The notes: a model not told the origin generated them from the sequence alone. DNA of 64,000 nucleotides from Candidatus Bathyarchaeia archaeon (GCA_049521795.1 JBEKOM010000004.1:59078-123077), one strand, 5' to 3'. Counted from the first letter of the stretch, positions 21,182 through 62,561 are shown. Numbers and translations are program-made.

Positions 21182-21307
21182 GGGGTTTGCCGGTCATAGG
21201 GCGCGGGTCCCACCTGATCCCATACCGAACTCAGAAGTTAAACCGCGCTCCGTTTCCGGCTGTAATTTGGTCTTCGGCCATGTGAACCCGGAAAAGCTGG
21301 TAACCCC
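21182..21307 (+). rRNA. 5S ribosomal RNA, not linked to 16S/23S
   Basis: Contains CGGTCATAG and CCCATACCGAACTCAGAAGTTAAACCGCGC. Helix I is GGGGTT(T)GCCGG paired with CTGGTAACCCC. Length is 126 nt. Confidence 0.85.
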
Positions 21308-37959: not shown

Positions 37960-38529
37960 ATGCCGAAGACAAAACCGACGATCCGCATCCAAAATATCGT
38001 TGCGTCAGCGGCTCTTAACCAGAGGATAAACTTGGGGAAGATAGTTCAGAAGTTCCCCTTTGCCGAGTACAGCCCCCGTGTGTTCCCTGGACTCGTTTTC
38101 CGGCTGAAGAAGCCGAAGACGGCTACTCTCATATTTGAAACGGGCAAGATGGTCTGCACGGGTGCAAAATCGGAGAAAGAAGCGATTCAAGCGGTGAACA
38201 AGGTTACTAAGGAGCTGCGAAGCCATGGGATACCGCTTCCTAACAAGCCTGAGGTTAAAATTCAGAACATCGTCGCTTCTGCAGAGTTAAACGGAGAAAT
38301 AGACTTGGAAAACCTTGTCTACAAGCTTCAGAAAGTGATGTATGAGCCGGAGCAGTTTCCGGGAGCAGTTTTCAGGATGGATGAGCCGAAGGTTGTGTTC
38401 CTCATTTTCTCAGCTGGAAAGCTGGTGTGCGTGGGGGCAAAACAGGAGGGAGACGTCTACGAAGCGGTCGGCAAGCTTCAGCAGCTACTGGAGGAGAAGG
38501 AACTCATCTTTTATCCGCCTGATGCATGA
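37960..38529 (+). CDS. tbp: TATA-box binding protein
   Basis: Two direct repeats: IQNIVASA...FPGLVFRL...LIF.TGK.VCTGAKS, then IQNIVASAEL...FPGAVFRM...LIFSAGKLVCVGAK. Confidence 0.95.
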   Translation: MPKTKPTIRIQNIVASAALNQRINLGKIVQKFPFAEYSPRVFPGLVFRLKKPKTATLIFETGKMVCTGAKSEKEAIQAVNKVTKELRSHGIPLPNKPEVKIQNIVASAELNGEIDLENLVYKLQKVMYEPEQFPGAVFRMDEPKVVFLIFSAGKLVCVGAKQEGDVYEAVGKLQQLLEEKELIFYPPDA

Positions 38530-46735: not shown

Positions 46736-48094
46736 TTAGGGCGGTTTGATTCCAGGATCTGGAGGCGGCGGAACCTGTTGAATCGGCGGCGTGCTGGGTT
46801 TCGGACGCCTTCTGCGGGCTATGAAAACCGCTACTATCGCTATGATCACTATGATCGCGACTATTACTATGGCCAGATACAGTGTGGGGAATGATGATGG
46901 TGACTGCGGCATGACGCTGTTTCCAGCCGAGTCGGTTTTAACCAGGAAGCCATCGTAGATACCGGCGCCGTAAGAATCCGTGAAACCGGCTAACGCGTAG
47001 CCTCCGTCGCTGGTCTGAACAAGTGAGAACGCCTCGTCGTCTCCTCCTCCGCCGTACGTTTTGCTCCACTGCATCGTTCCAGAAGAGTAGGTTTTGACAA
47101 GCCAGAAATCGTAGTTGCCCGCTCCGTAGGAACCTGTCCAGCCGGCTAACGCGTAGCCTCCGTCGCTGGTCTGAACTATGGCGTTTGCCACTTCATCGCC
47201 TGCTCCTCCGTAGGTCTTGTTCCACAGTTGCGCTCCGCTGAGGTCTGTTTTGACAAGCCAAAGGTCGAGGCCGCCTGCGCCGGTAGAGTTCGTGTACCCA
47301 GCTACGGCGTAGCCGTCGCCGGTCTGAATCACACACTCTGCTTCATCGTCCCCTGAGCCGCCGTAGGTCCGGTTCCAAAGCATGTTTCCTAAGGAGTCGG
47401 TTTTAACCAACCAGAAATCGAGGCTGCCCGCGCCGAAAGAGGTCGCGGATCCCGCCCACACGTAGCCTCCGTCGCTGGTCTGAATAACAGAGTAAGCCTG
47501 TTCGTCTCCGGTCCCACCGTACGTCTGGTTCCACTCCATGCTTCCCGAAGAGTTTGTCTTAACCAGCCAAAAGTCGTAACCGCCCGCGCCGTAGGAATCT
47601 GTGGACCCCGCCAACGCGTAGCCTCCGTCGACGGTCTGGATCAAGGAGTATGCAGCGTTTTGTGCTCTTCCTCCGAATGTTTGGCTCCACAGCATGTTTC
47701 CAGAAGAGTCTGTTTTGACCAGCCATGCGTTGGTTTCGCCTGCACCGTAGGAAGTTGTGGTTCCGGCTAATGCGAATCCCGTGTCGTTGGTCTGGATAAC
47801 TGAAAAGGCTCCATCGTCACCTGATCCCCCGTAGGTTTGGTTCCACAGCATCGTTCCAGAAGAGTTTGTCTTAACCAGCCAAAAATCGTAGCCGCCCGCG
47901 CCGCTGGAGTTTGTGTATCCCACTAACGCGTAGCCTCCATCGCTCGTCTGAGCAAGTGAATAGAATTCGTTGTCCCCTTTGCCTCCGTAGGCTTGACTCC
48001 ACCCTGACGCGGCGAAGCCTGACCGAACGCACAAGGCAAAAGTGAACATGCTGATGACAAGAAGACACAGCAGTATTCGGTTCCAGCGTTCCAT
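46736..48094 (-). CDS. secreted seven-repeat (propeller-like) protein with a C-terminal TM anchor and proline-rich tail
   Basis: Signal peptide, then seven units of about 48-52 aa (W.[QK]TYGG.GDD.A.S..QTSDGGYALAG.T.S.GAG..D.WLVKTD..G). The C terminus is SSFPT + TM + RRRRPKPSTPP...PPPP. Confidence 0.75.
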   Translation of the reverse strand: MERWNRILLCLLVISMFTFALCVRSGFAASGWSQAYGGKGDNEFYSLAQTSDGGYALVGYTNSSGAGGYDFWLVKTNSSGTMLWNQTYGGSGDDGAFSVIQTNDTGFALAGTTTSYGAGETNAWLVKTDSSGNMLWSQTFGGRAQNAAYSLIQTVDGGYALAGSTDSYGAGGYDFWLVKTNSSGSMEWNQTYGGTGDEQAYSVIQTSDGGYVWAGSATSFGAGSLDFWLVKTDSLGNMLWNRTYGGSGDDEAECVIQTGDGYAVAGYTNSTGAGGLDLWLVKTDLSGAQLWNKTYGGAGDEVANAIVQTSDGGYALAGWTGSYGAGNYDFWLVKTYSSGTMQWSKTYGGGGDDEAFSLVQTSDGGYALAGFTDSYGAGIYDGFLVKTDSAGNSVMPQSPSSFPTLYLAIVIVAIIVIIAIVAVFIARRRRPKPSTPPIQQVPPPPDPGIKPP

Positions 48095-48308: not shown

Positions 48309-48627
48309 GGGCTGGCGAGTCGGTGTGTGGCTTTCGAGCCTCGACGAGAGAGGCTTGAGGAAACTCCGCCCACAAGTAGAGTTGCAGCGTCCGCAAGGAC
48401 GCAAGGTGAGAACCTTGGCTCCAGAGCAGAAACGAAACGTCCGCTCAGCAAGTGACGGTGATGCATGTTAAGTTGTTGAGGATGCTGAGTGCGAAGCGAT
48501 GAAACGGCTGACCTGCAAGTGGAAAGGGCAAGCAGACGCTGATGAAGAGTCTACCGGAAGCGCGGGTAGCCCGATTAGCCGAATGCCACAAAGAACAAAA
48601 GGCGGGTTACGACCAACACGCCAGCTC
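48309..48627 (+). ncRNA. rnpB: RNase P RNA (archaeal type A-like)
   Basis: P1 is GCTGGCG (48311-48317) paired with CGCCAGC (48619-48625). P3 hairpin is GGCTTTCGAGCC. CR-I is GAGGAAACTCCGCCC. CR-IV/V is CCACAAAGAACAAAAGGCGGGTTAC, and P4 pairs CCGCC with GGCGG. Length is about 319 nt, with an A/T-rich box 25-35 bp upstream. Confidence 0.8.
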
Positions 48628-48662
48628 TACAAGCAACCCGCCACCCCGACAACGTAACTGAC

Positions 48663-49553
48663 ATGAATAAGAACGGCATCCTTGCCCAATTCTTGATCCA
48701 TTGTCAAAAAACTGCCTTGTCCGAAGAAACCATCAACACCAAATACAAAGTTCTCAGAGTAATGCTCACTAATAACGTCAACCTAAACGACTCTGACCAA
48801 GTTAAGATTTTCATTCACAACCGCAAACAATGGAGTAACGGACACAAAAGCATAGCCGTATTTGCCTATGATGAATACTGCAAAATGAAAGAAATCCAAT
48901 GGACTCCGCCAGAATATCCCAAAAACGAGACTCTACCATTCGTTCCAACTGAAAAAGAAATAGACGCACTCATAAACGGAACAAGTACAAAAGTATCCAT
49001 TACACTGCAAGCACTAAAAGAAACAGCGTTCCGTATCGGCGAACTCTGGAGATGTAAATGGACAGACATCGACGAAGAAAAATCAACCCTGAAATGTAAT
49101 CAGCCCGAAAAGAAATGTGCTCCAAGGGAAGTGCGAATCTCAAGTAAATTGATCGCAAGATTCAACCTTCTACCAAAAACCAACGAGTATATATTCGGTA
49201 AAACGCGCATAAGTGCAACTCGAACAACTTTCTGCAACCAACGTAATAGCCTCGCCAGAAAACTCAACAACCCAAGACTCAAACAAATACATTTTCATAC
49301 CTTTAGACACTACCACGCCACTAGACTCTACAATGAAACAAAAAGTCTTATAGAAGTACAAGCTCGCCTTGGACATCGAAACATAAACTCAACCATGGTC
49401 CATACTCATATTGTACAATTCGATGAAGAGAGCCAAAACTATCATCATGCAATAGCTCGCAATGAAAAGGAAGCTGGCGAACTAATAGACAACGGATGGA
49501 CGTACATCTGCACAACCCCACAGAATGTAATGATGTTCCGAAAACGCAAATAG
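48663..49553 (+). CDS. tyrosine recombinase / phage-type integrase
   Basis: ETAFRIGEL (Arg I), HTFRHYHAT (H-x-x-R), LGHRNINSTMVHTH (the catalytic Tyr position appears to be replaced or offset; needs alignment), plus an N-terminal SAM-like core-binding domain. Confidence 0.85.
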   Translation: MNKNGILAQFLIHCQKTALSEETINTKYKVLRVMLTNNVNLNDSDQVKIFIHNRKQWSNGHKSIAVFAYDEYCKMKEIQWTPPEYPKNETLPFVPTEKEIDALINGTSTKVSITLQALKETAFRIGELWRCKWTDIDEEKSTLKCNQPEKKCAPREVRISSKLIARFNLLPKTNEYIFGKTRISATRTTFCNQRNSLARKLNNPRLKQIHFHTFRHYHATRLYNETKSLIEVQARLGHRNINSTMVHTHIVQFDEESQNYHHAIARNEKEAGELIDNGWTYICTTPQNVMMFRKRK

Positions 49554-49655
49554 CAACAACCTCCCCCTTTTTTATTACCAACACAAAGCGCGCAAAGCTT
49601 CTTAAATCAAACCAAACAAACGAATGAAAGAATGTGCTAAGCAAGAGACAGAGAT

Positions 49656-49982
49656 GTGCTCAAATTGAAAGCAAAGTCAGCCACAGAGAAATCTGAAAAA
49701 GAGGTCCTTTTTTTCCTAGAGCAATACTTTGGCGCAAAAGACATCGAAATAAACCCAAAAGTAGGAGACAAGAAAGCTGACTTCAAGGTCAAAAGCATTG
49801 ACGCATACATCGAAGTTCATGCACTTAAAGACATCGCGAGCGACCAAATGGATATTCTGTCACGAGAAAAGAACATCACTCATGTGAAATTGAAGAATGA
49901 TGGACAAAAGAAGATTCTAGACAGAATAGCAAACAAGCTGCTTCATGAGTGCGCTCAGCTTCCTGAGGGAAAAAAAATCTAA
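49656..49982 (+). CDS. hypothetical protein, possibly the 5' part of a frameshifted gene
   Basis: 108-aa ORF that ends just after an A8 run at 49970-49977. Confidence 0.4.
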   Translation: MLKLKAKSATEKSEKEVLFFLEQYFGAKDIEINPKVGDKKADFKVKSIDAYIEVHALKDIASDQMDILSREKNITHVKLKNDGQKKILDRIANKLLHECAQLPEGKKI

Positions 49983-50053
49983 TCGTAACGAAGACTGAGG
50001 GCCGCTTCCTTTGGCCAGAAGACGTCACTGACACTATTATTGGAGAACCTCAT

Positions 50054-50290
50054 TTGCTTATCAACAAAGAGAACATGCAAACAAGTGTCGGACGTGGAAC
50101 TACTGCTTTCAGGACTGATGAAGAACTTCAAGAAGTGTTGCGGAAGATTTCCGCTGTTCTTGCATACGAAGCGATTTGTCAGCATGGCAAATTGTTGGGA
50201 ATCTTGGGAAATAACAAGAACAATGCTGAAGTTCCTTTTGATGACGAAACCCTTGCAATTTTCAAGAACTTCCTGTGCGATAAATGCTGA
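50054..50290 (+). CDS. hypothetical protein, possibly the 3' part of a frameshifted gene
   Basis: The frame is open back to 49967, so it overlaps the A8 run in the -1 frame relative to 49656-49982. Confidence 0.35.
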   Translation: MLINKENMQTSVGRGTTAFRTDEELQEVLRKISAVLAYEAICQHGKLLGILGNNKNNAEVPFDDETLAIFKNFLCDKC

Positions 50291-50334
50291 AGAGAGAAAG
50301 CTTCATCATACAATTACAGCGCTCCAGCAATATA

Positions 50335-50377
50335 TTGGCTCGTGAGCCGTTCGGCTCACTCGCACGTTCCAGACGAT
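50335..50377 (+). repeat. 43-bp direct repeat, copy 1 (contains a 7-bp-stem hairpin)
   Basis: TTGGCTCGTGAGCCGTTCGGCTCACTCGCACGTTCCAGACGAT. It matches 42 of 43 positions of copy 2. Confidence 0.9.
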
Positions 50378-50421
50378 ACGTCACAAACAGCCGAGCGCGC
50401 GCTAGAAAAAACTCTTTTATA

Positions 50422-50883
50422 ATGAGATACCACTTTAGTCCATGGAAGTTGTCCACCGAGAAGGGTAATCCTCTATTCGGAGCATGGAGGCTGAAATCGC
50501 TTGAAACAAAGGCATCTGACGGATCTGTCTCCTATCCGTGGGGGAAAGAAACTTTTGGCTACGTCGTCATCAGCCCAGAAGGCTACTTTTGCGTCGCAAT
50601 AATGAGCGCTAATCGCAGAAGATTCTCCTCACAAGATATGAAGGGAGGTAGCGCGGAAGAAAGAGCGAACGCTGCAGATTCATACATATCGTACTCCGGA
50701 CCGTGTGAAATCGAGAAAGACAAGTTTCGAGTAAAGGTAGAAGTCAGCCTGTTCCCCAATTGGGTAGGCGGAATCCAAGAACGCAACTACAAGATCGAGG
50801 GAAAAACGCTCTCTGTATCGACTACTCCAACTCTTGTAAACGGAAAAGAACAGGTAGGCTACTTGATTTTCGAACGCGTCTGA
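50422..50883 (+). CDS. lipocalin-like domain protein
   Basis: LFGAWRLKSLE....G.....PWG....GYVVISPEGYF ... and a YSG ... F.V.V pattern typical of the bacterial lipocalin_5-type domain. The ATG is at 50422. Confidence 0.6.
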   Translation: MRYHFSPWKLSTEKGNPLFGAWRLKSLETKASDGSVSYPWGKETFGYVVISPEGYFCVAIMSANRRRFSSQDMKGGSAEERANAADSYISYSGPCEIEKDKFRVKVEVSLFPNWVGGIQERNYKIEGKTLSVSTTPTLVNGKEQVGYLIFERV

Positions 50884-51014
50884 AACTGATCGCGCGCGCA
50901 AGATCAAGCCGAAGTTTTGAAGCCCCAAGATCCAAAACCTGTAAGCCGAGCCTCTTCTAGACTTCGAAAATTATTAAAGCACTATTACGCATATCATATC
51001 TTCTGGGAACATAA

Positions 51015-51107
51015 ATGCCGAAAAAAGACAAACCGTTAACTAAGAAAGAGCGAGACGAGAAAAGGAAGAAACATAAGGAAAAGCAAAGCAAAACACAGGC
51101 TTCTTAA
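51015..51107 (+). CDS. candidate 30-aa Lys/Arg/Glu-rich micro-protein
   Basis: MPKKDKPLTKKERDEKRKKHKEKQSKTQAS. A paralogue lies at 61063-61125(-), and the two differ mostly at synonymous sites. Confidence 0.35.
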   Translation: MPKKDKPLTKKERDEKRKKHKEKQSKTQAS

Positions 51108-51278
51108 GCCCCAAGAAAGAGCTTTGCAAAACTCTTTTTCTCTTTTTTCCATAAAGTTGGCTTCTTTAATGAAATGAAAGAAAGACGCGTCAGCTTTGGA
51201 TATTATTGGCTTCCTCCATTAATGCGAAAGAAATATGTTTTAGTTTGTTTATTTATCGTTAATTTGTAGCTGAGATTC

Positions 51279-51407
51279 ATGCCGAGTGTAATGAAACGTA
51301 AACAAAAGAATACTCAAATCGCACAACAGAAAAAGAAAGAACGAGATAAAGAAGCGAAAAAGAAACAGTTGAGACAGCAACTTCCTGCCAAGGGCAAGAA
51401 ACGTTAA
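51279..51407 (+). CDS. candidate 42-aa lysine-rich micro-protein
   Basis: MPSVMKRKQKNTQIAQQKKKERDKEAKKKQLRQQLPAKGKKR. The call rests on composition only. Confidence 0.25.
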   Translation: MPSVMKRKQKNTQIAQQKKKERDKEAKKKQLRQQLPAKGKKR

Positions 51408-51433
51408 AGCCACTAAAGGAGCGCGCGCTCATC

Positions 51434-51476
51434 TTGGATCGTGAGCCGTTCGGCTCACTCGCACGTTCCAGACGAT
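51434..51476 (+). repeat. 43-bp direct repeat, copy 2
   Basis: TTGGATCGTGAGCCGTTCGGCTCACTCGCACGTTCCAGACGAT, 1099 bp downstream of copy 1. Confidence 0.9.
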
Positions 51477-51962
51477 GAGTCAAAGCCAAACCAACCGCAC
51501 AATAAGCATTTCCGCCTGTCGCGCTCGCATCACGCTCGCGCTCCCACCCACAAAAACTCAAAACAATAACTAGCAGACGCTTATCAGGTAAGGATAAGAC
51601 TTTGCCCTCAGACTGTGCAGTTTTCTCGTCCCCCCTGTTTTTTTCAGTAACGTTTTTGGTAATGTTGTGTGGTAACAAGTCTTGAAGAAGCGGACAGGCG
51701 TGGGGAACAAGACTTCAGCTCTACACCGTAACGAACCAGCACTACTATCCTAATAGCGTTTTTTTCCTAAGCATTCCATTCTAGATCTCTTCATGGTTTT
51801 CTTGGCTGTACTCTCTATTGTCCGCTTCCACCCTGACGCTAAGGGGTCCGATTCTTGCAAGTGGCGGTAGGATATGAGACAGCAATTGCTCTGCACTTAG
51901 TGGGCGAAGTGTACCATTCAGACTGATCTGCGTCCAATCAGTCTTTTCTTTGCGATATTTCT

Positions 51963-52367
51963 GTGTCCAGCCGTGTTTGGTCGTGCGCGCGTGCTATGGT
52001 TCAGATTCCGAGAATGAGACATGGAAGCAAACAGACAATTGAAACATTGATTAATGAAGAGGCTTACTTGTTTGCGAAGTTTCTGAGATGTGAACGAGAA
52101 ACATGGGTTCCAAGAATAGTGAGCCTTCAAGGAAACATGGCTACTATCAGCACAAACCTCGGAACGTTGACAGGCACTGTTACCAGCATAAACAGCACGG
52201 TCGCTACGATCCAAACAAGCCTCGGAACTCTTGAAGTCACTGATCAAGGAGTCAAAAGCTCGTCGGACACAACAGGAAACTACTCCTTAGCCGCATCAGC
52301 CCTTTCAATCATCAGCATAATAATTCTGCTTGCCGTCGCAATTCAAGTGTTCAGAAAACATAAGTAA
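51963..52367 (+). CDS. hypothetical protein with a C-terminal TM anchor
   Basis: Repeated I.T.LGTL motif, then a TM helix. The start is uncertain; an internal Met (MATIST) is possible. Confidence 0.4.
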   Translation: MSSRVWSCARAMVQIPRMRHGSKQTIETLINEEAYLFAKFLRCERETWVPRIVSLQGNMATISTNLGTLTGTVTSINSTVATIQTSLGTLEVTDQGVKSSSDTTGNYSLAASALSIISIIILLAVAIQVFRKHK

Positions 52368-52592
52368 ACCCAAAATTACCTAGTTTTCTTCTATCGTTCT
52401 TTCTTCTCCACAATCATGCGCATGCGCGCGAGCCCAATCCCATGACTAATGGATTTGACTTTTGCAGATTTGATAGAAGTGTGTCGATACGACAGTGCGA
52501 AAACAGAGAGGACTGAGTTAAAGTGGTTCTCGAGCATCTATGTTTCTTGTTCTCTCCAAACGCCCGCGCCCACATTTCAGGTTGTCTGGTTT

Positions 52593-53447
52593 CTATGTCT
52601 TGCCTTTTGCAACGAAGATTGCAAGATGTGCAAGACGATGACGCTTGACCTTGCGGAAGTAACGGGATAACAAAGATTCAGCAAATGCGTAGTCAAGTTT
52701 GGTCTTATCCTCTTCCAAGACTTCGTGTTCCACTTTCTCAACAAATTCCCCCATCGTTAAGGGGTAATTGTCCTTGTTCGGATGAGAATAAGGAACGATG
52801 AACGCGAGACTTCCGTCCTTCTTCAAAACACGGTGTAACTCTTTCAGGGCGCGGTGGACATTTTCGGGTTCGCCATGCACTCTCACGGCATCAACAAAGT
52901 TATCCTTTAGGGATATGTTTTCAACAGGGGTATCAAGAACAATGAGGTTTGCGCATTCGATGCTCAGCTTCACGGACTTGGGCTTGACCAAGTAGATTTT
53001 TCCATCCTCAACCACGTTGCCTAAGGATGATATCATCCAATCATAGAAGACTTTAGGTGCAACCACCAAGATTGTGTCGCCTCTGCCAACTTGCGAATCG
53101 AGCAATCGTTGCAGTTTTCGAATAGCACTCTTCTCAGGAGGAAGTTTCGACAAATACTGCATGTACTTGACATGAATAGTTTTGACTGCTTCCTTCAGCT
53201 CTTGACCCAGTTGATTCGTACCTTTCTTGCCGAGCCTGTACACCTTCCTTTCAGGCCCAAGGGCGCTTTTCATTCGGGTAGCCTCCAGATAGCCCTCTGT
53301 CTCCATCTCAGTGAGCACTCTATAGAGGTAGCTGATATTCGGCCTGAAGTCTCTCGCTGCCAATTGTTTTTGGACCTCATAGCCGTGCATTTCTGCGGTG
53401 CCAAGCATCTCTACAATCGTCTTCTTCAGATAGTCTTTGTGCATCAA
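52593..53447 (-). CDS. PadR-type winged-helix regulator fused to a methyltransferase-like domain
   Basis: N terminus: HGYEVQKQL......ISYLYRVLTEMETEGYLE....KS..GPERKVYRLGKKG. C terminus: ILVVAP ... FVDAVRVHG ... LKELHRVLKKDGSLAFIVP. Confidence 0.7.
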   Translation of the reverse strand: MMHKDYLKKTIVEMLGTAEMHGYEVQKQLAARDFRPNISYLYRVLTEMETEGYLEATRMKSALGPERKVYRLGKKGTNQLGQELKEAVKTIHVKYMQYLSKLPPEKSAIRKLQRLLDSQVGRGDTILVVAPKVFYDWMISSLGNVVEDGKIYLVKPKSVKLSIECANLIVLDTPVENISLKDNFVDAVRVHGEPENVHRALKELHRVLKKDGSLAFIVPYSHPNKDNYPLTMGEFVEKVEHEVLEEDKTKLDYAFAESLLSRYFRKVKRHRLAHLAIFVAKGKT

Positions 53448-53488
53448 ACAAACCAGCTATTCGAAAATCAGTACTATAGTGACATCAT

Positions 53489-53512
53489 CTTAGGCATTTA
53501 TAGGTTCCTAAG
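53489..53512. promoter_or_regulatory. inverted repeat bracketing a TATA-like box upstream of the PadR-fusion gene
   Basis: CTTAGG-catttataggtt-CCTAAG. On the minus strand the centre reads CCTATAAATG, about 50 nt upstream of the start at 53447. Confidence 0.35.
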
Positions 53513-53708
53513 CCCCTCATGTTTCAAGCCGGAACACAAAACAGAATAACGTGAAAAAATGAGAAAAACGAAATCATTATTGCCGATAATCTCAGGTATT
53601 CATTTGCCATCCATATTCTTAGCTGCACCTAGCTTTGCCTGCAACACAACGGGCTTAAGTGGTGCGTTCGCGTGTGCCTCGCAATCATAGCACGGGGGAG
53701 AAAAGCCT

Positions 53709-54284
53709 GTGACACAGCCTCAAAGCACAAGGGCTTCAACCAGCAAAGTTGGCGGGATCATGGGACCGAGCTCCATTCTGACTTTGGCTGTCCCCGTGGT
53801 CGCACTGATCGTGGCGCTGTTGAGCAGAAGCCTTCTTCTCCTGACTTATGTTCACGTACTCACCGGCGGAACTTGGACTGGCATAGACCTGTTTATGGGA
53901 CTGGTCATGAGCAGAGTGCTGGGCAGTCTCTCCACTCAAAGCCGCGTTGAGGTCATAAAAAAACTCGTGCCGATCATGTTGTTCTTCATGCCTGCGCTGG
54001 CTTCGGTAGCCATAACTGCCGGCGTTTACCTAGCAATCAGTCTGGGTTGGAGTTTCTTCTCCACTCCAATAATTGCGGCATTTATCATCGTGATCATTCT
54101 ATCGGTCCAAGGCTTTGGTCTGATACTGCCAAACGAGGTTCGCGTCTTTCTCGAGCTCAGGAAGCCAAACCCAGACACAGAGAAGATTGTGAAACTTGGC
54201 ATGAGAAACTTCTACTTCGCTGGCAGCCAGACGGTATTCCAGATCGCAATCATATTTGTGATGGCCTATATGGGCACCATATGA
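53709..54284 (+). CDS. integral membrane protein
   Basis: 191 aa with about 5 TM helices. No family recognised. Confidence 0.55.
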   Translation: MTQPQSTRASTSKVGGIMGPSSILTLAVPVVALIVALLSRSLLLLTYVHVLTGGTWTGIDLFMGLVMSRVLGSLSTQSRVEVIKKLVPIMLFFMPALASVAITAGVYLAISLGWSFFSTPIIAAFIIVIILSVQGFGLILPNEVRVFLELRKPNPDTEKIVKLGMRNFYFAGSQTVFQIAIIFVMAYMGTI

Positions 54285-54411
54285 TGAAAAAAACGTTTGG
54301 ACCTGTACCCGTTTGGTCTTAAGAGTAAAGTCTTGTCCCAAACCCAAACGACTAAGCGCGTGCTACTGAACGACCGTCAATAATACTCTTAGAAAAAGAC
54401 GCGCTAGAAAA

Positions 54412-54897
54412 TTATGTAGCTTTGCCTTCTTTACAATAGTAGCTCATTGGTTTACCTTTCATTAGATTGAAGTCCTTGAAGACTTGGCATCCGCTGCAAA
54501 TGCACATCTTGTTGAAATCAAGGTCTTTACAAACTGCAACGCCGTTAGCGCAGTATGGTCCAGGCATATCTTCCGCTTTAGGCATCATCAAAGCAATCTG
54601 TTCCTTTGGCGTGTTCCGCATCATTTCATCGCTCATGTTCTTCATCTGTTCCCTGGACATGCTCCTCATCGTTTCAGGACTCATGTTTTTCATCATTTCC
54701 AAGTTCTGCATCATTCCAGGGGTCATGATCTTCGATATTTCAGGGCTCGGGTTCTTCATCATCTCATCCTTCGCTATTATTTTAGGTTTGGCACACGCAC
54801 TAATAGCCTGGACTGGACACATTGCGCACTTGCATTTCATTATCACATCATAAGTCAATAGAACCTTAGGTCCTGCCTTATGCCCAAAAAGATTCAA
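54412..54897 (-). CDS. Cys-rich protein (DUF2769-like) with a Met-rich repeat insert
   Basis: CKCAMCPVQ ... YCANGVAVC...CICSGCQVF...YYCKEGKA. The central MMKN[PM]SPE repeats contain many Met residues. Confidence 0.6.
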   Translation of the reverse strand: MNLFGHKAGPKVLLTYDVIMKCKCAMCPVQAISACAKPKIIAKDEMMKNPSPEISKIMTPGMMQNLEMMKNMSPETMRSMSREQMKNMSDEMMRNTPKEQIALMMPKAEDMPGPYCANGVAVCKDLDFNKMCICSGCQVFKDFNLMKGKPMSYYCKEGKAT

Positions 54898-55357
54898 AAA
54901 AATCCACCTCCAACCTAATCGCCTTAGAACAAGATGCTAGATTAAGCTTTGCTCTCATATTAACCATCGCAAACTAACCGATACGCGCACTTCCTTCTTC
55001 AGGGTATGGTTTGCAGGAGTGTGCCATTTGAAGGGGAAGTAGAACATCAGATTTATCAGTGGTACTCAAAAGACATCAAGGTTAAGCACGCGGGGTATCT
55101 ATCCGTGTCTGTTTTTTGCGTTTGTCCGTGTGTGTTTGTGTGTGCGAGTGTTTGTAGAAAGAGGGCTAGTAGGAGAGAGAGAAAGATAAGACTTTACCCC
55201 CAAAACCAAAGGTATGCGGCGAAAAGTGTTTTTTCGGTTAATGGTTTGAACACGCAACCTCTGTTCGTTAACGATTACGAGGGTGTTCTTTCTGTTAAAA
55301 AAATCTTCAAACCTTAAATACAAAATAGGAAATACTGGTCATCTGAGAAGATTTGGG

Positions 55358-55732
55358 ATGTCACAAAAGAGGTATTGCCAATATTGCGGAGTAGAAATAT
55401 CCCCAACGACCACACAATGCCCTTCATGCGGTGCGGTACAACAGGCCCCTGCTCAATCACAACAGCAGCCTTACGTAGCGCTTCAACCTCAACCGCCGCC
55501 TCCGCCGGTAGCAGCTAACAAATCAACAGGAAATATTCTGGCGGCGGCAAGCATCATCCTTGGGATTGTGGGCATATTCGTCGCCGGGGTCATACTCGGA
55601 ATAGCCGCGATAATCGTTGGCGCCGCTGCAATATCGAAAAAGGCAAAAGTCGGCGGTGCAGTTGGAATAATACTGGGCTTTATTGCGTTTGTCGCTACGC
55701 TGTTGCTGATATTAGGAGTAATCACCGTATAG
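55358..55732 (+). CDS. zinc-ribbon membrane protein
   Basis: YCQYCG...CPSCG, a Gln/Pro-rich linker, and two Gly/Ala-rich TM helices. Confidence 0.6.
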   Translation: MSQKRYCQYCGVEISPTTTQCPSCGAVQQAPAQSQQQPYVALQPQPPPPPVAANKSTGNILAAASIILGIVGIFVAGVILGIAAIIVGAAAISKKAKVGGAVGIILGFIAFVATLLLILGVITV

Positions 55733-55831
55733 ACGGTTCTTCGCTGCCTGATTATCTACAAAAAGAACGCGCGCGAAGATTACTCTATCCTCGTAAGGAA
55801 ATAGATTTAGGAAATAGTCGGTCTATCGATT

Positions 55832-56416
55832 ATGAAAACTACTGGATTTTTCTGGGGTAGATTTAATCCTCCGCATAAAGGCCACGTTGAGATTATTAGA
55901 AGAATTCTAAGACAAGTGGATGATTTGATCGTGGTCATAGGAGCTTCCCAAAACAAGAATACTAAAAGCAATCCGTTCAGCGGGGAAGAGAGAAAGCAAA
56001 TGCTGGAGGCATACTTGAAAGAAGAGGAGCTAGATGAGAAGGTAAAAATAATTCCACTTCCAGACAGTGAAGTGTCGATACAAGATGCAGTAAGATATGT
56101 TCTCAACAACACTCCGAAATTTGATGTCTCTTTTTCTACGCATGAAATAGAAGAACAGTTGACTCCGATAAAAATAGAAGTTGAAAAAACACTAGAACAA
56201 GAATTGAATAAGAGAAAAATCAAAATTGTCAAGTTTAGAAGAATGGGAACACTATCTTCTTCGAAGATCAGAGAAGCCATAGCTTATGATAAAAAATGGG
56301 AGTATATGACAGGTAAGTCTGTGGTGAGAATAATCAAAGAACTAAATGGAATAGAAAGAATAAAGAAAGCGCATAACAGTAGTTACACACAATCGAAGAG
56401 AAAGAGAAAAGGATAA
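55832..56416 (+). CDS. nicotinamide-nucleotide adenylyltransferase (archaeal NMNAT)
   Basis: GRFNPPHKGHVEII (the H-x-G-H motif) and the late SSSKIRE motif. Confidence 0.85.
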   Translation: MKTTGFFWGRFNPPHKGHVEIIRRILRQVDDLIVVIGASQNKNTKSNPFSGEERKQMLEAYLKEEELDEKVKIIPLPDSEVSIQDAVRYVLNNTPKFDVSFSTHEIEEQLTPIKIEVEKTLEQELNKRKIKIVKFRRMGTLSSSKIREAIAYDKKWEYMTGKSVVRIIKELNGIERIKKAHNSSYTQSKRKRKG

Positions 56417-56513
56417 GCGCGCTTCACAAACCTATGGTTATTCGTCCTCGGGCGCCTTGTATTAGGGTAAGGTTAATTTTTGCCTTCGCAGTAGTTTGAA
56501 AGGGGCGATCCGA

Positions 56514-57134
56514 GTGTTTGAGTTTGCTGGTCTGAGGTTCAGGCCTTTGGAGAAGGAAGATCTGAAGCTGCTGCACGTTTGGGAGAACGATTCTGAGCTG
56601 ATGATGTACAGTAGAAGTCAACCGTTGAACATGGCCTCGATGGCTCAGCTGGAGGAAAGATTTGCCGAATGGATGAAGAATGAGAAGAACCTCTTTTTCA
56701 TCGTGGAGGCCATCGATTCAAACGAGCCTATAGGTTTCGCCAGCATTCGCAGGGAAGTTTGGGGCAACGTTCCAGGAGCGGACGTTGGCACCTACATAGG
56801 AAAGAAGGAACTGTGGGAGAAGGGCCATGGAAAGAAAATAACCGTCGCATTGCTAGAAATGTCCTTCATGCACCTTGGCCTTGAGCACTGCCAAGCGTGG
56901 AGCGTAGAGTACAACACGCGGGCCCACAGAGCGCTCGAATCTTGCGGCTTCAAGAAAGGCGGAGCTGTGCGGAACACGGTCTACGTGGCAGGCAAGAAAT
57001 GGGGGTCCTTCCATTTTGACATACTTCAAGAAGAATACATGCGCGTGCGATCGGACCTGCTGACGAGGGTTCTCGGAGACGAAGTGGACAACTATTTGAA
57101 GAAGATGGGACCGAACCTTAAGCCTGCCAAGTGA
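56514..57134 (+). CDS. GNAT N-acetyltransferase (RimJ/RimL-like)
   Basis: LRFRPLEKEDL...W and the GKKI...L....F acetyl-CoA region. GTG start at 56514. Confidence 0.8.
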   Translation: MFEFAGLRFRPLEKEDLKLLHVWENDSELMMYSRSQPLNMASMAQLEERFAEWMKNEKNLFFIVEAIDSNEPIGFASIRREVWGNVPGADVGTYIGKKELWEKGHGKKITVALLEMSFMHLGLEHCQAWSVEYNTRAHRALESCGFKKGGAVRNTVYVAGKKWGSFHFDILQEEYMRVRSDLLTRVLGDEVDNYLKKMGPNLKPAK

Positions 57135-57317
57135 AGAAGTGACTGCTAAGAAACAGGAGGCTTATCTTCTGTGACGGCACGCGCGGTCCAGAATCGAAGA
57201 ACAGCGCTTGCGCAGGCTGTGAAACGTTAGAAGTCCATTATCCCCGCTCCTGATTCAGAGTTCACAAGGCTAATTTCTCCAGAAGATGAAAAGTTAGCGC
57301 ATAATAGGTAGTTGCAT

Positions 57318-59678
57318 ATGAACTGTCGAGTCTTTACATTATTACTGTTTCTTCTGACAGTGTTTCTTCTAATTCCCGTCCAGAGAGTCTCAGCGGACGT
57401 TGATTCGGACCTTCAGGTGACGCCGCTGACGCAGCATTTCGTTGTGAATCTCGTGTACACTCAGATGCTCCGGTTTAGCTTTAACATAACCAACTCTGGC
57501 ACTCAGGCGAGGCCGCTTATGATTCAGCACGATCCGCTTCCGGACTGGGTAGAACGCGATGACTATCAGGGCAAGGCTTTACCAAACACGGTTGACACGG
57601 TGTGGGTCATGTTAGGATGCGGCGGTCCTGACCTCAACTCTAATGGAACGACTTACACGGCGTACTACGCTGTGATCGCGGATCACGCCAACACCCCTGG
57701 AAACTATGTGGCTGCAAACGTGACCATAACTTGGACTATAATTGTTTCATGGGATGGCCAGCTGTACTATCAGGCCAGCGGAGAAGTGGTTGATGCTGAA
57801 ACCTCGGTCCCGATTTCCGGTGCTTACGTCGGCTTCGGGGTACCAGGCGAGTTCGGAGTAGGCCCTGGACCTGCGAGTGTTTCACAGGCAGACGGAACCT
57901 ATTCGGAGTACACCGTGATTCCAGGAACCACTAGCACCGCGGTCGCATTGGCCCTCGGGTATCAGACATACGTTAACGCTGACTACTATGTGACTTCAAA
58001 ACCTGACCAGCGCATCCAACAGAACTTTGAATTGATCCCTTCTGGGACGTTAGGAAACTACAGCCTGCAGTGGAACTCAACCCTGCTGAGCCCCATCTAC
58101 TACGGAGCCATCTCATCCGACTTCAAGACCATGATCCTGGCAGGGGGAGAACATGGAACCGCGAGTTACCACGCATTGCCAGACCCGTCCTTCAGCAATC
58201 TGTACTACGTCTACTTGTACGATACGAACGGCACGATGCTATGGAGGTTCGGGCCTTTGACCAACGACAGCGACACTTACGGAGGGTTCTGGAGCGCCAC
58301 CATAACAGCAGACGGTTCCTTAGCAGCGGCGGGAACCACCGATGGAAAACTCTTCGTCTACAACAGACAAGGCCTGCTGTGGAACATCACCAGAACAGCT
58401 GAAAACGCTTCAGACGCCCAGTTTGAACGATTTTCTCCAGACGGAAACTACTTAGTGGACGGTTGCGGCGGCAGCTGGATAGAATGCAGGAACGCCACGA
58501 CCGGCGAGATCTTCTGGTCAGCGCCCGCCTACGAGCTTGCAAATCCTAGGGCGATGCTCTTCAGCGCCGACAGCAGCAAACTGCTGGTTGGAACTTCAGT
58601 GCTGCGATTGTTCGACACTGCCAACGGCACGCTGCTCTGGACAAGATCGATAAGCGGGTTCATCTGGCCGACTTCGATCGCTGCGACACCCGACTTTTCA
58701 TTCATAGTCGTCGGCACTGGGAAGGGCGGCACCATCTGGGCCATGGACGGCGACGGCAACGTCAAGTGGGAGGTCGACACTGGAAACAGCGCAGTCAACT
58801 GGGTCTCCATGTCAGTCGACGGCTCAGTTGTCGCTACGGGAGCAAGAGACGGTCTCAGAATCTTCAACCAGAACGGAAAACTGCTATGGGGACTTACCGG
58901 CCTTGAAGCCCGCCTACCTTGGATTGGCGACGTGACCGCGGGAGCTGTGACAGCTGATGGCCGCTACATTCTCGCAGGCACGTCCGGCAACACCGCCTTC
59001 CGAAGCGATACCATTCCAAACGGAGCTTTGCTTTTTGACGTGAACGGCACTCTCCTCTGGAGTGACTTCTGGAACACCACGGCGACGAAGTGGGTGCCAC
59101 CCGACTTTGGAAGACCACTGTTTGCAGCGATATCAAGCGATGCCAGCACTTTCATCCTTGGGTCCACCGACAGCGCTCTAAGAGTGTATCACGGAGCGGT
59201 CGTAGCAACGCCTACCCCTCAGAACGTCACAGTTGCTGATCACACTGTTCAAGTGGACGGAAAAGTTTTCCACGTAGTAACGGAAAGCAACTCAACCGTG
59301 TCGGACATCGTCTTGGATCAATCACAAATAAAGTTCAACGTCTCCGGTGACTCTGGCACAGTTGGATATTTCAACGTGACAATTCCAAAGTCTCTGATGA
59401 ACTGCACAAGTCTTGACGATTGGACCGTGTGGCTTAACGGCACACAGCTTCTAGCTCCTAACTTCCTCGCGCCAACGGAAAACGCAACACACACGTTCAT
59501 ACAGTTCACTTGCACGTTTGATTCCACGTTTCAAGTAACTATCAAAGGAACAAACGTGGTTCAAGAGTTTCCATCACCAACCATTCTGTCACTAGCCATC
59601 GCAACAACGCTACTAGCAGTCATAGTCTGCAAAAGAGGAAGGATTAAGAAAACCGATGGATCAACGGCACCTCACTAG
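57318..59678 (+). CDS. large secreted protein with beta-propeller-type repeats and a C-terminal anchor
   Basis: Signal peptide. There is a CarboxypepD_reg-like segment (GEVVDAETSVPISGAYV...ADGTYS) and multiple repeats of DG..L.AG...G.L.....G.LLW. The C terminus is QEFPSPT + TM + KRGRIKK. Confidence 0.7.
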   Translation: MNCRVFTLLLFLLTVFLLIPVQRVSADVDSDLQVTPLTQHFVVNLVYTQMLRFSFNITNSGTQARPLMIQHDPLPDWVERDDYQGKALPNTVDTVWVMLGCGGPDLNSNGTTYTAYYAVIADHANTPGNYVAANVTITWTIIVSWDGQLYYQASGEVVDAETSVPISGAYVGFGVPGEFGVGPGPASVSQADGTYSEYTVIPGTTSTAVALALGYQTYVNADYYVTSKPDQRIQQNFELIPSGTLGNYSLQWNSTLLSPIYYGAISSDFKTMILAGGEHGTASYHALPDPSFSNLYYVYLYDTNGTMLWRFGPLTNDSDTYGGFWSATITADGSLAAAGTTDGKLFVYNRQGLLWNITRTAENASDAQFERFSPDGNYLVDGCGGSWIECRNATTGEIFWSAPAYELANPRAMLFSADSSKLLVGTSVLRLFDTANGTLLWTRSISGFIWPTSIAATPDFSFIVVGTGKGGTIWAMDGDGNVKWEVDTGNSAVNWVSMSVDGSVVATGARDGLRIFNQNGKLLWGLTGLEARLPWIGDVTAGAVTADGRYILAGTSGNTAFRSDTIPNGALLFDVNGTLLWSDFWNTTATKWVPPDFGRPLFAAISSDASTFILGSTDSALRVYHGAVVATPTPQNVTVADHTVQVDGKVFHVVTESNSTVSDIVLDQSQIKFNVSGDSGTVGYFNVTIPKSLMNCTSLDDWTVWLNGTQLLAPNFLAPTENATHTFIQFTCTFDSTFQVTIKGTNVVQEFPSPTILSLAIATTLLAVIVCKRGRIKKTDGSTAPH

Positions 59679-59969
59679 AATCGTGAAGAAGACAGCGAGA
59701 AAAGCTGCATGGCGTTTTCCGATGAAGGATTGTTACTTTCACGGTTCGAGCCGGGTGCTCTCTCGCTCTCACACCCTCCCCCCCGGGTATCCTATATGAC
59801 CCAAATATGGTTAGGTAGTCAGAAATGACTATCCGCATATGGTTCAAGAGCAGAGTTGCACTAGCTACTGCCCGAAAGAATTAAGGAACACGCTAGCGCG
59901 CTAGGAGAAGAAAAAGAAAAGATGGCTTATTTTTGACCCATCGCCTGGGCTGTCGCAAGGTATTTATGT

Positions 59970-60323
59970 ATGCAATTGATATCTTTTGTATACGGTGACG
60001 TGTTGACGCTTAAACCTTTAGCGGTAAGGATACCTAAGGAAATCGAGAAGGAAATCCTCGAAGTGGTCGAACGTGCAAAGTTGGACAAGGCTACTGTTGT
60101 TAGGAATCTTCTTGAATTGGGAATTGCGGAGTGGAGGAAGCAGACGGCTCTGGAGTTGTTGCGAGACGGGAAAACCACGTTTGCCAAGGCTGCAGAGATG
60201 GCAAGGCTTTCGCTTTGGGAATTCGCTGATCTGGTGAAGCAGCGTAGTGTGGAATGGGTTAGATTTACGCCTGAAGAGCTCGAGAAAGAGTTCAGGGAAG
60301 CGTCGGCGGCGAAGCGTAAGTGA
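59970..60323 (+). CDS. antitoxin-like protein (RHH segment plus UPF0175-like domain)
   Basis: LAVRIPKEIEKEILEVVE...ATVVRNLLELG, then A.ELLRDGKTTFAKAAEMARLSLWEFADLV. Confidence 0.6.
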   Translation: MQLISFVYGDVLTLKPLAVRIPKEIEKEILEVVERAKLDKATVVRNLLELGIAEWRKQTALELLRDGKTTFAKAAEMARLSLWEFADLVKQRSVEWVRFTPEELEKEFREASAAKRK

Positions 60324-60832
60324 AGCTGCTTGTTTTCAATTCTACGCCATTGATCTACTTGACTAAAGTGGGTTTGAGCATGGTTCTTGAGGGTTTGAAG
60401 GGCGAAAAGGTAACGTCGCCGAAGGTCAAGAGCGAGGTTGTGGATGAAGGCAGGCGTAAAGGTGTTCCTGACGCAGTTGTCTTGGAAAAGCTGTTTGACA
60501 GCAAAGTGTTTAGGGTTGTTGAGCCTAAGGATGAGGAGTTTTTGTCGAGATTGTTGAAGACGAGGGGACTTCATGTGACTGACGCGGAGGTTTTGGCTCT
60601 TGCCCACGAGTTGAACGGTGTGGCTGTCGTGGATGATGGTGTGGCAAGGAACACCGCGAAGGTTTACGGGATAGGCTACGTGGGTACGCCATATGTTCTG
60701 GCGAGGGCTGTCTGTGAGGGATTGGTCACTAAAGAAAGAGCTAAGCAGGCTGTGAACGAAATGGTTTCTGTCGGTTGGCGATGCAGCGTTGAAAGTTATG
60801 CGAAGATTATTGAAGCTTTAGAGAAGCTTTAG
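60320..60832 (+). CDS. PIN-like toxin (DUF3368-type)
   Basis: GTGA overlap with the upstream gene. Contains LVFNSTPLIYL..., DAEVLALA and VVDDGVARNTAKVYGI..VGT..VL. Confidence 0.65.
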   Translation: MKLLVFNSTPLIYLTKVGLSMVLEGLKGEKVTSPKVKSEVVDEGRRKGVPDAVVLEKLFDSKVFRVVEPKDEEFLSRLLKTRGLHVTDAEVLALAHELNGVAVVDDGVARNTAKVYGIGYVGTPYVLARAVCEGLVTKERAKQAVNEMVSVGWRCSVESYAKIIEALEKL

Positions 60833-60892
60833 AGGTTGAGCAAATTCAGCGCGCTGGCTTGTCCCTAAATTCGAAAAAAAAAGTAACTGAAA

Positions 60893-60931
60893 GCATATAC
60901 ATTTCGCATATACGTTTTGCATATACAGTTG
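60893..60931 (+). repeat. three tandem 13-bp units sharing the core GCATATAC
   Basis: GCATATACatttc GCATATACgtttt GCATATACagttg, with cores at 60893, 60906 and 60919. Confidence 0.7.
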
Positions 60932-61062
60932 ACGAGCATTGTTGAAAACGGTGAGGCTGTTCACGTCGGCTGCCGAGCTGCGTGGACTGTTCAAGTGCGC
61001 AATGAGTCGATAGACTCAACAAAAAACGCACGCTGAGAATGAACAATGCCCAACGATTGAGG

Positions 61063-61125
61063 CTACTTCTTCAATCGTTTCTCTTTGTGCTTTCTTCTTT
61101 TCTCTTCTCTTTCCTTTTTAGTCAT
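61063..61125 (-). CDS. candidate 20-aa Lys/Arg/Glu-rich micro-protein (paralogue of 51015-51107)
   Basis: MTKKEREEKRRKHKEKRLKK. Confidence 0.3.
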   Translation of the reverse strand: MTKKEREEKRRKHKEKRLKK

Positions 61126-61468
61126 TGGTTTCTTTTTAGTGGCTCCAGTGCTCAATTCAATCACCACGCTCAAATAGTCAGAATAGGGAATTAAGTTTTT
61201 GCGCGCGCTCTGGCTAATGCGCGTGCTTCTTCCAGTCTCCTCACTTTTTTAACGTTGCTCCTTCCATGTTTCCATGTTCCTCGGCTTTTCATTCTTTTCA
61301 AGAATCGTTCTTTTTTCGCCTGCTTTTTCCTCGATCGGTCCAAACAAATCTTCCTTCCCAGAATCAGAAAGTAACAACAAACAAGGATTATAACCTTTCA
61401 CCTGAATAATCCGACAGAATCCAAGACTTAATGAGAAAGAAGTTCATTAGAGTATTGAGAGTCTGTTT

Positions 61469-61582
61469 ATGAGCAGGCGTAGACGGTTTGACAGGCTTGA
61501 ATGTCAGAATTGCATTTACAAGAGCAGCACGTACTGTTGGAGACAATGTCCGTACAACATCTGGAAGACGGAAGAATACTAA
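61469..61582 (+). CDS. candidate 37-aa four-Cys mini-protein
   Basis: MSRRRRFDRLECQNCIYKSSTYCWRQCPYNIWKTEEY (CxxC ... CxxxC). It falls below the ORF-track threshold. Confidence 0.2.
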   Translation: MSRRRRFDRLECQNCIYKSSTYCWRQCPYNIWKTEEY

Positions 61583-61784
61583 GTCTCGTGCGGTTGCTTC
61601 TTAGCTGCAGGAGCCTGAGTTGTGTTCTCATCGGCTACACGTTCGAATAGCCTTCCGCGCGCTGTGAGACGCCTAGAGAACTGAATGAGATTTAAGATAA
61701 AGCCGATGCCTATATCTTAGGAGCTCCATTGTACTGTTTGGATGTAAATGGTTTAATGAGGACTGAAGGAATGGGAGTGGGAAC

Positions 61785-62078
61785 ATGATTTCGTCCAAGG
61801 CGAAAAATCGAATGAAGCGTGAGCTAGCCTTAGGGAAGCCAACAATATGGGTTGGTAAGGAGGGAGCGTCGCCGCAGACGATGAATGAGATTTCTAGGCA
61901 GTTGGAGAAGAGGAAAATGGTGAAAGTCCAAATATTGAATAGCGCGCTTGTGAATGAGAGCGCCAAAGACATCGCGTCAAAAACAGCTCAGCAAACAGGA
62001 TCCGTTTTAATCGATGTTCGAGGCCACACTTTCATACTGCATAAGCCTCGCAAAAAGAGAAGTGAAAAGCCTCCGTGA
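61785..62078 (+). CDS. CRS1/YhbY-type RNA-binding protein
   Basis: KRELALGKPTIWVGKEGAS......I...L..RKMVKVQIL. Confidence 0.8.
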   Translation: MISSKAKNRMKRELALGKPTIWVGKEGASPQTMNEISRQLEKRKMVKVQILNSALVNESAKDIASKTAQQTGSVLIDVRGHTFILHKPRKKRSEKPP

Positions 62079-62561
62079 GAGGACCGTTTAAAGGGTTTTG
62101 AAAGGGATTGGATTGTGATAATCTTGTTAGGGAAGGTTCAAAAACACCCACTTCGTTCATGCCTTTGACCTTGCCTTCATGAACCTGCCTCCGTCAAGAG
62201 ATCCTAAAATGGCTGACGCATCCATTGACAAAGGCGCGCGCGTCTTTCTTGATGAGCATGACCATTCTGACTGAGTGTGCTCTTTTCATCCTCTTCAACT
62301 ATCGAACAGCCTAGCGCGCGCACTATCTTACTCTCTTGTTTCTCCGAAGCAAGCGTTTGTTTGGGAGTTTTGGTTTCTTCACACGTTTTGCATCCGTCGC
62401 AGCCAAGACTAGACCCTCAAGACAGTTTTGACCCTCGTTTCTCTTAAAGCTACTGTACAGCGCGCTCTAATGATTGTGGAGACGACTTACAAATTTAGCG
62501 CGCTGGATCGATAGGCATGCGGAACATGCTAGAAATCGGCTATTAACCCGAAAATCTTGCA

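Follow-up and report, generated by a model that had tools for sequence, protein, structure and literature searches.

By the textbook rule, prokaryotic integrative elements target tRNA and tmRNA genes at their 3′ ends. The locus analysed here lies in a stretch of 64,000 nucleotides (nt) from a Candidatus Bathyarchaeia archaeon (GCA_049521795.1 JBEKOM010000004.1:59078-123077; hereafter, the window), which contains no tRNA gene at all. In this window, a gene for a tyrosine recombinase of 296 amino acids (positions 48663–49553, plus strand) follows rnpB, which encodes the RNase P RNA. In all likelihood, this gene encodes the integrase of a small integrative element that uses the 3′ end of rnpB as its target; the copy in the window is probably stuck, and mosaic cargo lies behind it.

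In archaeal integration of the SSV type (partitioning, 'suicidal'), the attachment (att) site lies inside the integrase gene (int), which is split upon integration. As in that system, the enzymes considered here are archaeal tyrosine recombinases integrating into an RNA gene, but att is located 38 nt upstream of the ATG codon, or 27–52 nt past the stop codon in a lineage with a zinc ribbon, and int remains whole. By architecture only, the element is assigned to the pNOB8 (non-partitioning) type. An intact int gene beside att at the 3′ end of the target is present in the window. The att repeat at the far end is absent from the window and present in loci L003, L246, L126, L146, and L020/L036 of relatives, and the site is polymorphic, with 49 empty and 41 occupied loci; these and all further counts of occupied and empty rnpB loci are among the matches listed. 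From general knowledge, the features shared with pNOB8-type archaeal and P4/lambda-like integrases are the position of int beside att, an att site consisting of an identity block over a stable RNA gene's 3′ end, the rebuilding of the target gene, flanking direct repeats, and tandem arrays. The differences are the target itself, which is rnpB and not a tRNA or tmRNA gene; a conserved tail of ~45 residues past the catalytic Tyr in the integrases of the rnpB site; and the elements, which are small and without recognisable genes for replication, conjugation, or virions.

Site-specific integration at a stable RNA gene other than a tRNA or tmRNA gene was described in 2025 for phage phiEf11, whose novel att site is located in ffs (4.5S RNA) (PMC12540744). 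The identity block of phiEf11 comprises 27 nt and lies near the integrase gene. This is a bacterial phage with another RNA gene as its target, whereas the rnpB elements are archaeal and contain no viral genes. In a survey of 2026, 'ncRNA' genes, not named, made up 13.5% of the RNA-gene targets of proviruses. Searches of the open literature yielded no paper in which rnpB serves as an attachment site; in all matches, it is a marker or a reference gene. While the class of mechanism is well known, its target, the clade, and the frequency in Bathyarchaeia appear to be new.

The 3′ end of rnpB as an attachment site

The rnpB gene of the window (48315–48625, plus strand), the target gene of the element family, is intact. 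Rfam model RF00373 (RNaseP_arch) matches positions 48315–48621 of the plus strand with 192 bits over its full length (1–288), and P1 can be extended in the sequence to about 48625 via GCUG/CAGC pairing. The ATG codon of the integrase gene (48663) is located 41 nt past the end of the Rfam match and 36–38 nt past the end of P1 as given in the preliminary description of this DNA. That description, made from the nucleotide sequence, had placed an integrase right behind the RNase P RNA, and both profile matches, RF00373 for the RNA and PF00589 (E = 1.2e-18) for the protein, confirm this arrangement.

The last 23 nt of rnpB, CGGGTTACGACCAACACGCCAGC (48603–48625, plus strand), constitute the attL core, which is scored at E = 1.5e-12 by an att profile built from 121 sites. 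The same segment, extending over 23–34 bp, occurs as perfect direct repeats around the elements of L003, L126, L146, L170, and L246. The 3′ ends of rnpB in relatives were collected with a 25-nt att pattern derived from the L003 repeat, which was run on one genome per species, and the matches were classed by rnpB profile and integrase similarity. Among the matches listed, 118 of 119 stretches were labelled as Bathyarchaeia-type or uncultured archaea, the exception being L096 (Candidatus Acidoferrum). The labels of the integrase homologues and rnpB relatives are nearly all Bathyarchaeota or Bathyarchaeia.

At least nine loci display a direct, perfect or near-perfect repeat of the last 23–66 bp of rnpB at a distance of 0.74–17.8 kb downstream, and these repeats mostly bracket an integrase gene and unrelated cargo. 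In L003, a perfect 28-bp repeat at 2.95 kb (2,951 bp) encloses an integrase gene of the window family and two small genes. Integrases of the window family together with cargo are bracketed by perfect repeats of 34 bp in L246 (9.16 kb) and of 23 bp in L126 (7.75 kb) and L146 (7.92 kb). A perfect 26-bp repeat in L020/L036 brackets an integrase of this family and cargo over 17.8 kb. The remaining cases are L170 (23 bp, perfect; 3.55 kb), L050 and L117 (both near-perfect; 5.35 and 4.36 kb, respectively), and L067, in which a perfect repeat of 66 bp at 0.74 kb occurs without an integrase. The att-bounded elements with a window-type integrase span 2.95–9.2 kb.

Two bases of the att core are variable (CGGGTTAC-NN-CCAACAC...). 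Within each of L003, L126, L146, and L170, attL and attR agree at these bases, which differ among those genomes. Tandem arrays of the form att-int...att-int are present on the contigs of L126, L170, and L208. Taken together, the direct repeats, the co-varying core bases, and the tandem arrays are standard signatures of site-specific integration, and attB is the 3′ end of rnpB. The suggestion of the preliminary description that rnpB is the att site of an integrated element is thus supported by the att repeats that surround integrase and cargo in relatives.

The attL junction of the window includes the left arm of an inverted repeat, GGCGGGTTAC (48601–48610, plus strand), whose inverted copy GCAACCCGCC on the element side (48633–48642, plus strand) is a putative second core-type binding site of the integrase. 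At an equal offset, AACCCGCC is found in the window-type attL junctions of L002, L003, L126, L146, and L170, and GTACACCRCC in a distant lineage (L050, L117, L059). In two lineages, the inverted copy of GGCGGGTTAC is thus located ~32–36 nt away on the element side of attL, and it is missing after attR. We infer that GGCGGGTTAC and its inverted copy are the two core binding sites of the integrase.

According to the mechanism proposed here, a circular element would bear attP, a copy of the rnpB 3′ end beside int, and the integrase would recombine attP with attB inside rnpB. The exchanged segment being identical, rnpB would be rebuilt at attL with int directly behind it, and the rnpB 3′ end that was displaced would persist beyond the cargo as attR. 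Repeated integration would produce tandem arrays. The DNA past int is a mosaic of accessory-gene modules that also occur behind other integrases. The recombination chemistry in this scheme is deduced from the tyrosine-recombinase family; its footprints are observed in the genomes.

A tyrosine recombinase gene is present within 2.5 kb of the rnpB 3′ end in 41 of 90 comparable loci, while 49 loci with adequate downstream sequence carry none. A profile search of these empty loci revealed no recombinase open reading frame (ORF) within 3 kb of rnpB. Three lineages of integrases occupy the site. Lineage 1 is the window type, which reads away from rnpB. Lineage 2 is about 30% identical to the window type and has the same position and orientation. 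Lineage 3 possesses an N-terminal, IS1-like zinc ribbon and is found in reverse orientation, with its stop codon 27–52 nt from att. The four-Cys zinc ribbon of lineage 3 matches the zinc-binding models of IS1/IS1595 transposases (NF050000), as seen in proteins P0088, P0092, P0095, P0097, and P0100 and in L010, L011, L026, and other loci.

A comparison of synteny, which the preliminary description had proposed as a check, showed that L001 and L003 retain the upstream gene order of the window (Pelota ... Fap7-like kinase, rnpB, integrase homologue) and share nothing with it past the integrase. Even L238, with an integrase 96.6% identical to that of the window, already has different cargo. In L002, L105, and L119, att and an integrase gene occur without rnpB. 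The preliminary description had also named three observations that would speak against integration into rnpB: relatives with the same downstream genes and no integrase, a lack of att duplication, and an Xer-type enzyme. None of these was encountered at the level of the family.

Some empty or nearly empty loci contain remnants. A scar-like match of 67 nt links L004 (2724–2790) with L050 (6264–6330), in the flank past the second att site of L050, and integrase C-terminal fragments of 29–37 amino acids are located past att in L060 and L032. These scars suggest former occupation followed by deletion. Two full-length, inverted copies of rnpB, about 2.4 kb apart, were found in L038 (1652–1956, plus strand; 4336–4637, minus strand), at the end of a 253-kb contig of a metagenome-assembled genome. 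They could be the result of an inversion or duplication between att sites, or an assembly artefact.

Three integrase lineages apply the integration logic of tRNA and tmRNA genes to rnpB, and they do so in close to half of the Bathyarchaeia species genomes that were examined. rnpB represents an added target class for the mapping of islands in metagenome-assembled genomes of archaea, as tRNA-based island finders would miss such elements. The DNA next to rnpB can be flagged as a hot spot for accessory genes gained by horizontal transfer, in a lineage that is abundant in sediments and soils. The precise att sequence and the Tyr-containing homologues make the system testable in vitro, in archaea that lack genetic tools.

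The integrase and the state of the window's copy

The product of the integrase gene matches PF00589 over residues 97–250 with 67.9 bits (cut-off, 27.1 bits). It also matches the integrase families of the PHROGs database (phrog_1, E = 1e-22), in which it is the sole match apart from a faint, sub-threshold match of the 51996–52367 product to a tail protein. More than 300 homologues share 53–97% identity with the integrase. The active-site residues Arg (R124), His-x-x-Arg (H212 and R215), and His/Trp (H238), which are invariant columns of the alignment, are all present in the window protein. All three integrase lineages retain the tail of ~45 amino acids that follows the active site.

The closest solved structures (PDB 5HXY and 4A8E) and the best NCBIfam model (NF040815) are those of archaeal XerA, with which the catalytic motifs align, including the LGH...Y-T-H box, and the family is highly conserved within Bathyarchaeia assemblies. 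These features would agree with a conserved chromosomal Xer-type recombinase that serves dimer resolution and lies beside rnpB by chance. We regard this explanation as highly improbable and already contradicted. The protein reaches 80.1 bits against the equivalog cut-off of 220 bits for NF040815, and its distribution is patchy, with 49 of the 90 rnpB loci lacking it. Moreover, three lineages occur at the site in two orientations, single contigs carry multiple tandem copies (L126, L208), and genes of the window family are linked to att repeats that bracket variable cargo. The copy in the window itself has no catalytic Tyr.

Residue 247 of the window protein is His (CAT, 49401–49403), while all 24 aligned homologues have Tyr at this position, which corresponds to a change from TAT to CAT. 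His247 aligns with the catalytic Tyr of XerA (in 'IYTH') and thus replaces the nucleophile, so that the doubt expressed earlier about the catalytic Tyr proved justified. The ORF is otherwise intact. In the consensus of the 24 homologues, Tyr247His is the sole deviation among 105 columns with a conservation of ≥95%. The Tyr-containing L238 homologue (96.6% identity) is separated from the window gene by 19 synonymous and 10 non-synonymous differences, which argues that the integrase gene was under purifying selection until recently.

The integrase stop codon is followed by a CCTCCCCC-TTTTTT tract (49560–49573, plus strand). This tract is retained past the integrase stop in 17 loci, after which the sequences diverge completely, and a clean homology breakpoint is located at 49572. 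The tract is probably the integrase terminator. In the first cargo gene (49656–50290, plus strand), a −1 frameshift within eight consecutive A (49970–49977; the A8 run) splits the reading frame. The repaired product of 211 amino acids has 25 homologues, mostly of about 195–260 amino acids, with 57–83% identity and 90–100% coverage. One of these (P0124), encoded by an intact gene, is the product of the gene that comes first past int within the att-bounded L246 element.

The window was extended by 9.5 kb along the JGI metagenome contig Ga0427939_0000121, so that the DNA covered downstream of attL amounted to 24.9 kb. The att profile detected no second att copy in this DNA, and the copy at rnpB is the only one, in agreement with the earlier inspection by eye. 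One attR candidate at 51705–51725 (17 of 21 matches) was rejected, as 100 of 200 random sequences scored at least as well and real upstream DNA gave 21–23. The conserved right-end motif AAGAAATTACTAAGCCC, seen in L003 and L050, is absent from the window even if three mismatches are allowed.

The window shows the attL-int end of such an element. Given Tyr247His, the frameshifted first cargo gene, and the lack of attR within 24.9 kb, this copy was probably immobilised recently and is now stuck. The word 'decaying', used in the preliminary description, fits this copy. As there is no attR in the window, the integration of its copy is deduced from the relatives, and the window alone is no proof.

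The same lesions can be read differently. The element might be an intact and active island of large size, its attR being located over 24.9 kb downstream, and Tyr247His and the A8 frameshift might be sequencing or consensus errors. All other conserved columns of the integrase (105 of 105) and the ratio of 19 synonymous to 10 non-synonymous differences from L238 would agree with this possibility, as would the low G+C content and the GCGCGC runs, both of which extend to about 66.7 kb, and the 17.8-kb span of one family member. We nevertheless consider it distinctly unlikely. Two independent lesions and a missing attR are improbable as three artefacts, the Alba, NMNAT-like, TBP, and SSB-like genes in this stretch look chromosomal, and the att-bounded elements with window-type integrases span 2.95–9.2 kb.

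Several points weigh against an integrative element at rnpB that has become stuck in the window. The att duplication is not present in the 24.9 kb past attL. As the sequence comes from a metagenome contig, errors of assembly or consensus could lie behind each of the two lesions, Tyr247His (a single T-to-C change) and the A8 frameshift. The elements lack recognisable replication, conjugation, or virion genes. The scan of rnpB 3′ ends, which yielded at least 119 stretches, covered rnpB genes with the chosen 25-nt motif only. Finally, no pair of an occupied and an empty site with matching downstream flanks was found for any att-bounded element, since the species representatives are too diverged; the one match obtained was the 67-nt segment common to L004 and L050. 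An exact-protein look-up of the upstream kinase for strain variants returned no record.

Mosaic DNA behind the integrase

The G+C content drops from about 0.49–0.56 to 0.41–0.46 past 49 kb. The peculiarities of the downstream DNA that had been listed before, namely a frameshifted gene, a lipocalin gene, micro-ORFs, and a 52-nt repeat, are all real. The 52-nt direct repeat (50332–50383 and 51431–51482) corresponds to a pair of copies of a dispersed repeat family, named D1 here: copy a (GCTCGTGAGCCGTTCGGCTCACTCGCACGTTCCAGACGATACG...; 50335–50385, plus strand) and copy b (51434–51484, plus strand). Homology breakpoints at 51438 and 51474 are located in copy b. Position 51476, given earlier as a provisional end of the element, falls in this second copy of a dispersed repeat and marks no element boundary.

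The D1 core measures about 48 nt; its edges are sharp and its flanks unrelated. At least 149 copies were counted in at least 128 sequences, and a scan of metagenomes with a 26-nt D1 core as query matched at least 120 contigs. Among the matches listed, 66 of 120 contigs hold a tyrosine recombinase gene, which in every case precedes D1 on the strand that both share, and D1 is often located 30–40 nt past the recombinase stop codon; 17 contigs carry 2–4 copies, spaced 0.54–7.5 kb apart and never of mixed orientation. Identical left flanks are joined via D1 to differing right flanks, and vice versa. D1-linked integrases elsewhere adjoin tRNA genes (L195, 33–107, tRNA-Gly; L206, 79–143), and one lies about 300 nt from a 5S rRNA gene (L200, 5530–5649). 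The wider family of D1-linked integrases may target several stable RNA genes.

Two modules lie between and next to the D1 copies of the window. The Lipocalin_5 module (50395–50899, plus strand) contains a gene at 50449–50883 (PF13924, E = 1.4e-29) and has GCGCGCGC at both edges. L105 shares this segment, which aligns over exactly 50395–50891, between two successive GCGCGCGC, and has the opposite orientation there with respect to D1. The lipocalin module is also present to the right of D1 in L133 and L215, whose left flanks are unrelated. The micro-ORF module (50900–51428, plus strand) ends at GCGCGCGC (51421–51428) and contains m1 (51015–51107, 30 amino acids) and m2 (51279–51407, 42 amino acids). 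Both products are rich in Lys and Arg, and the ORFs are intact in up to 12 loci. The DNA of this module is 91–97% identical in L023, L073, L110, L142, and L209, despite the fact that the integrases of L023, L073, and L110 are merely 27–76% identical to that of the window. The basic micro-proteins of 30–42 amino acids are of two types, one of which is MPKKDKPLTKKERDEKRKKHKEKQSKTQAS; an m1-like paralogue with 74% identity is encoded 10 kb away (61069–61137, minus strand).

The module edges coincide with GCGCGC(GC), the palindrome consensus being A-GCGCGC(GC)-T. There are 18 GCGCGC runs in the 13.7 kb past the integrase versus six in the 48.3 kb before rnpB, an excess over the upstream density with a Poisson P of 4e-13; all but one of the downstream runs (17 of 18) are intergenic (binomial P = 2e-7). 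The stretch with these palindromes (49588–62824) is a possible extent of the mosaic island and includes PadR-methyltransferase, NMNAT-like, GNAT, beta-propeller, and UPF0175/DUF3368 genes; presumably, all of it forms one island. A second dispersed intergenic motif, (CTTATCATCT)AAGGATAARACTTTRCCCC, occurs at 51590–51610 and 55182–55202 in the window and to the right of D1 in many loci, often past D1 and a GCGCGC run and ahead of a gene. This motif may serve as a cassette leader resembling a promoter.

When all loci are taken together, D1 shows an 11-fold and the GCGCGC palindromes a 7-fold enrichment of clean homology breakpoints. D1 and the palindromes mark the breakpoints of modules common to other loci. 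One possible account of the mosaic's origin is a cassette-collecting platform, integron-like in function, in which the recombinase or a partner would capture small modules and shuffle them at D1 and/or AGCGCGC(GC)T, and 49.6–62.8 kb would be an array built module by module instead of the cargo of a single element. This account is compatible with integration at rnpB. The sharp bounds of D1 amid unrelated flanks, its abundance and its position behind recombinases, the contigs with 2–4 co-oriented copies, the reassorted flanks, and the enrichment of breakpoints at both motifs all agree with it. So do the lipocalin module bounded exactly by two GCGCGCGC and inverted in L105, the intergenic GCGCGC runs concentrated downstream, and the extreme diversity of the cargo, with 371 clusters from 452 ORFs. 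However, D1 and the palindromes jointly account for just about 16% of the clean breakpoints, neither strand is preferred by the ORFs that follow D1 (130 versus 138), and a palindrome of 6–10 bp is too short alone for a recombinase site. We retain the cassette platform as a minority reading, possible but unlikely, because decayed tandem integrations with one int-D1 unit per element (L126, L208) could also yield D1 arrays.

In archaeal integrons, putative attI sites have been placed immediately downstream of intI (Ghaly et al., 2022; PMC9668308). The rnpB locus may resemble integrons in its layout: past the tyrosine recombinase, repeats of one orientation alternate with small accessory genes of great diversity, and D1 often lies just past int. 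Decayed tandem elements would account for such arrays equally well. Unlike integron integrases, the recombinase remains far below the IntI cut-offs (53.4 versus 265 bits for TIGR02249; 21.9 versus 435 bits for NF011946). D1 is conserved in sequence and has no fold like that of attC sites, which are imperfect palindromes with R″/R′ boxes that form single-stranded hairpins. The cassette ORFs are not co-oriented, and in relatives the whole unit is bounded by rnpB att repeats. The idea of D1 as an attC-like hairpin was rejected, since it forms only a 7-bp hairpin (z = −1.8 alone and about 0 with flanks) without an extended fold. No conserved box was detected in the left flanks of D1, no compensatory changes were seen by eye in the aligned copies, and an Rfam search over 49500–52600, which includes D1 and the intergenic region, gave no match at E ≤ 1.

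A bolder version would see an undescribed gene-shuffling locus behind rnpB in many soil and peat Bathyarchaeia, with a recombinase anchored at rnpB and modules swapped between genomes at D1 and AGCGCGC(GC)T. It would be an integron analogue with different sites and a different recombinase clade, and with sister lineages beside tRNA and 5S rRNA genes. We treat this joint claim as speculative and rather doubtful. The D1 and GCGCGC junction motifs could point to an additional mechanism of module exchange. A viral origin was rejected, as the D1 pattern, the att pattern, and the integrase family are all missing from IMG/VR contigs, and neither viral nor plasmid hallmarks were seen in the cargo.

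Other genes of the window

A stand-alone 5S rRNA gene (21186–21305; 70 bits) is the only rRNA gene detected in the window. A secreted or membrane protein of 452 amino acids with repeated 'SGxxxWxxTYGG' units is encoded between the Fap7-like kinase and rnpB (46736–48094, minus strand); it has no Pfam match and is not found at that position in L001 and L003. Two TBP genes occur within 28 kb, one in the window (37960–38529) and one beyond it (L251, 11852–12412, corresponding to about 65.1–65.6 kb). The second TBP gene adjoins an SSB-like OB-fold gene and is located near Alba and 'GT4-conflict' glycosyltransferase genes, in a stretch of low G+C content that is rich in GCGCGC.

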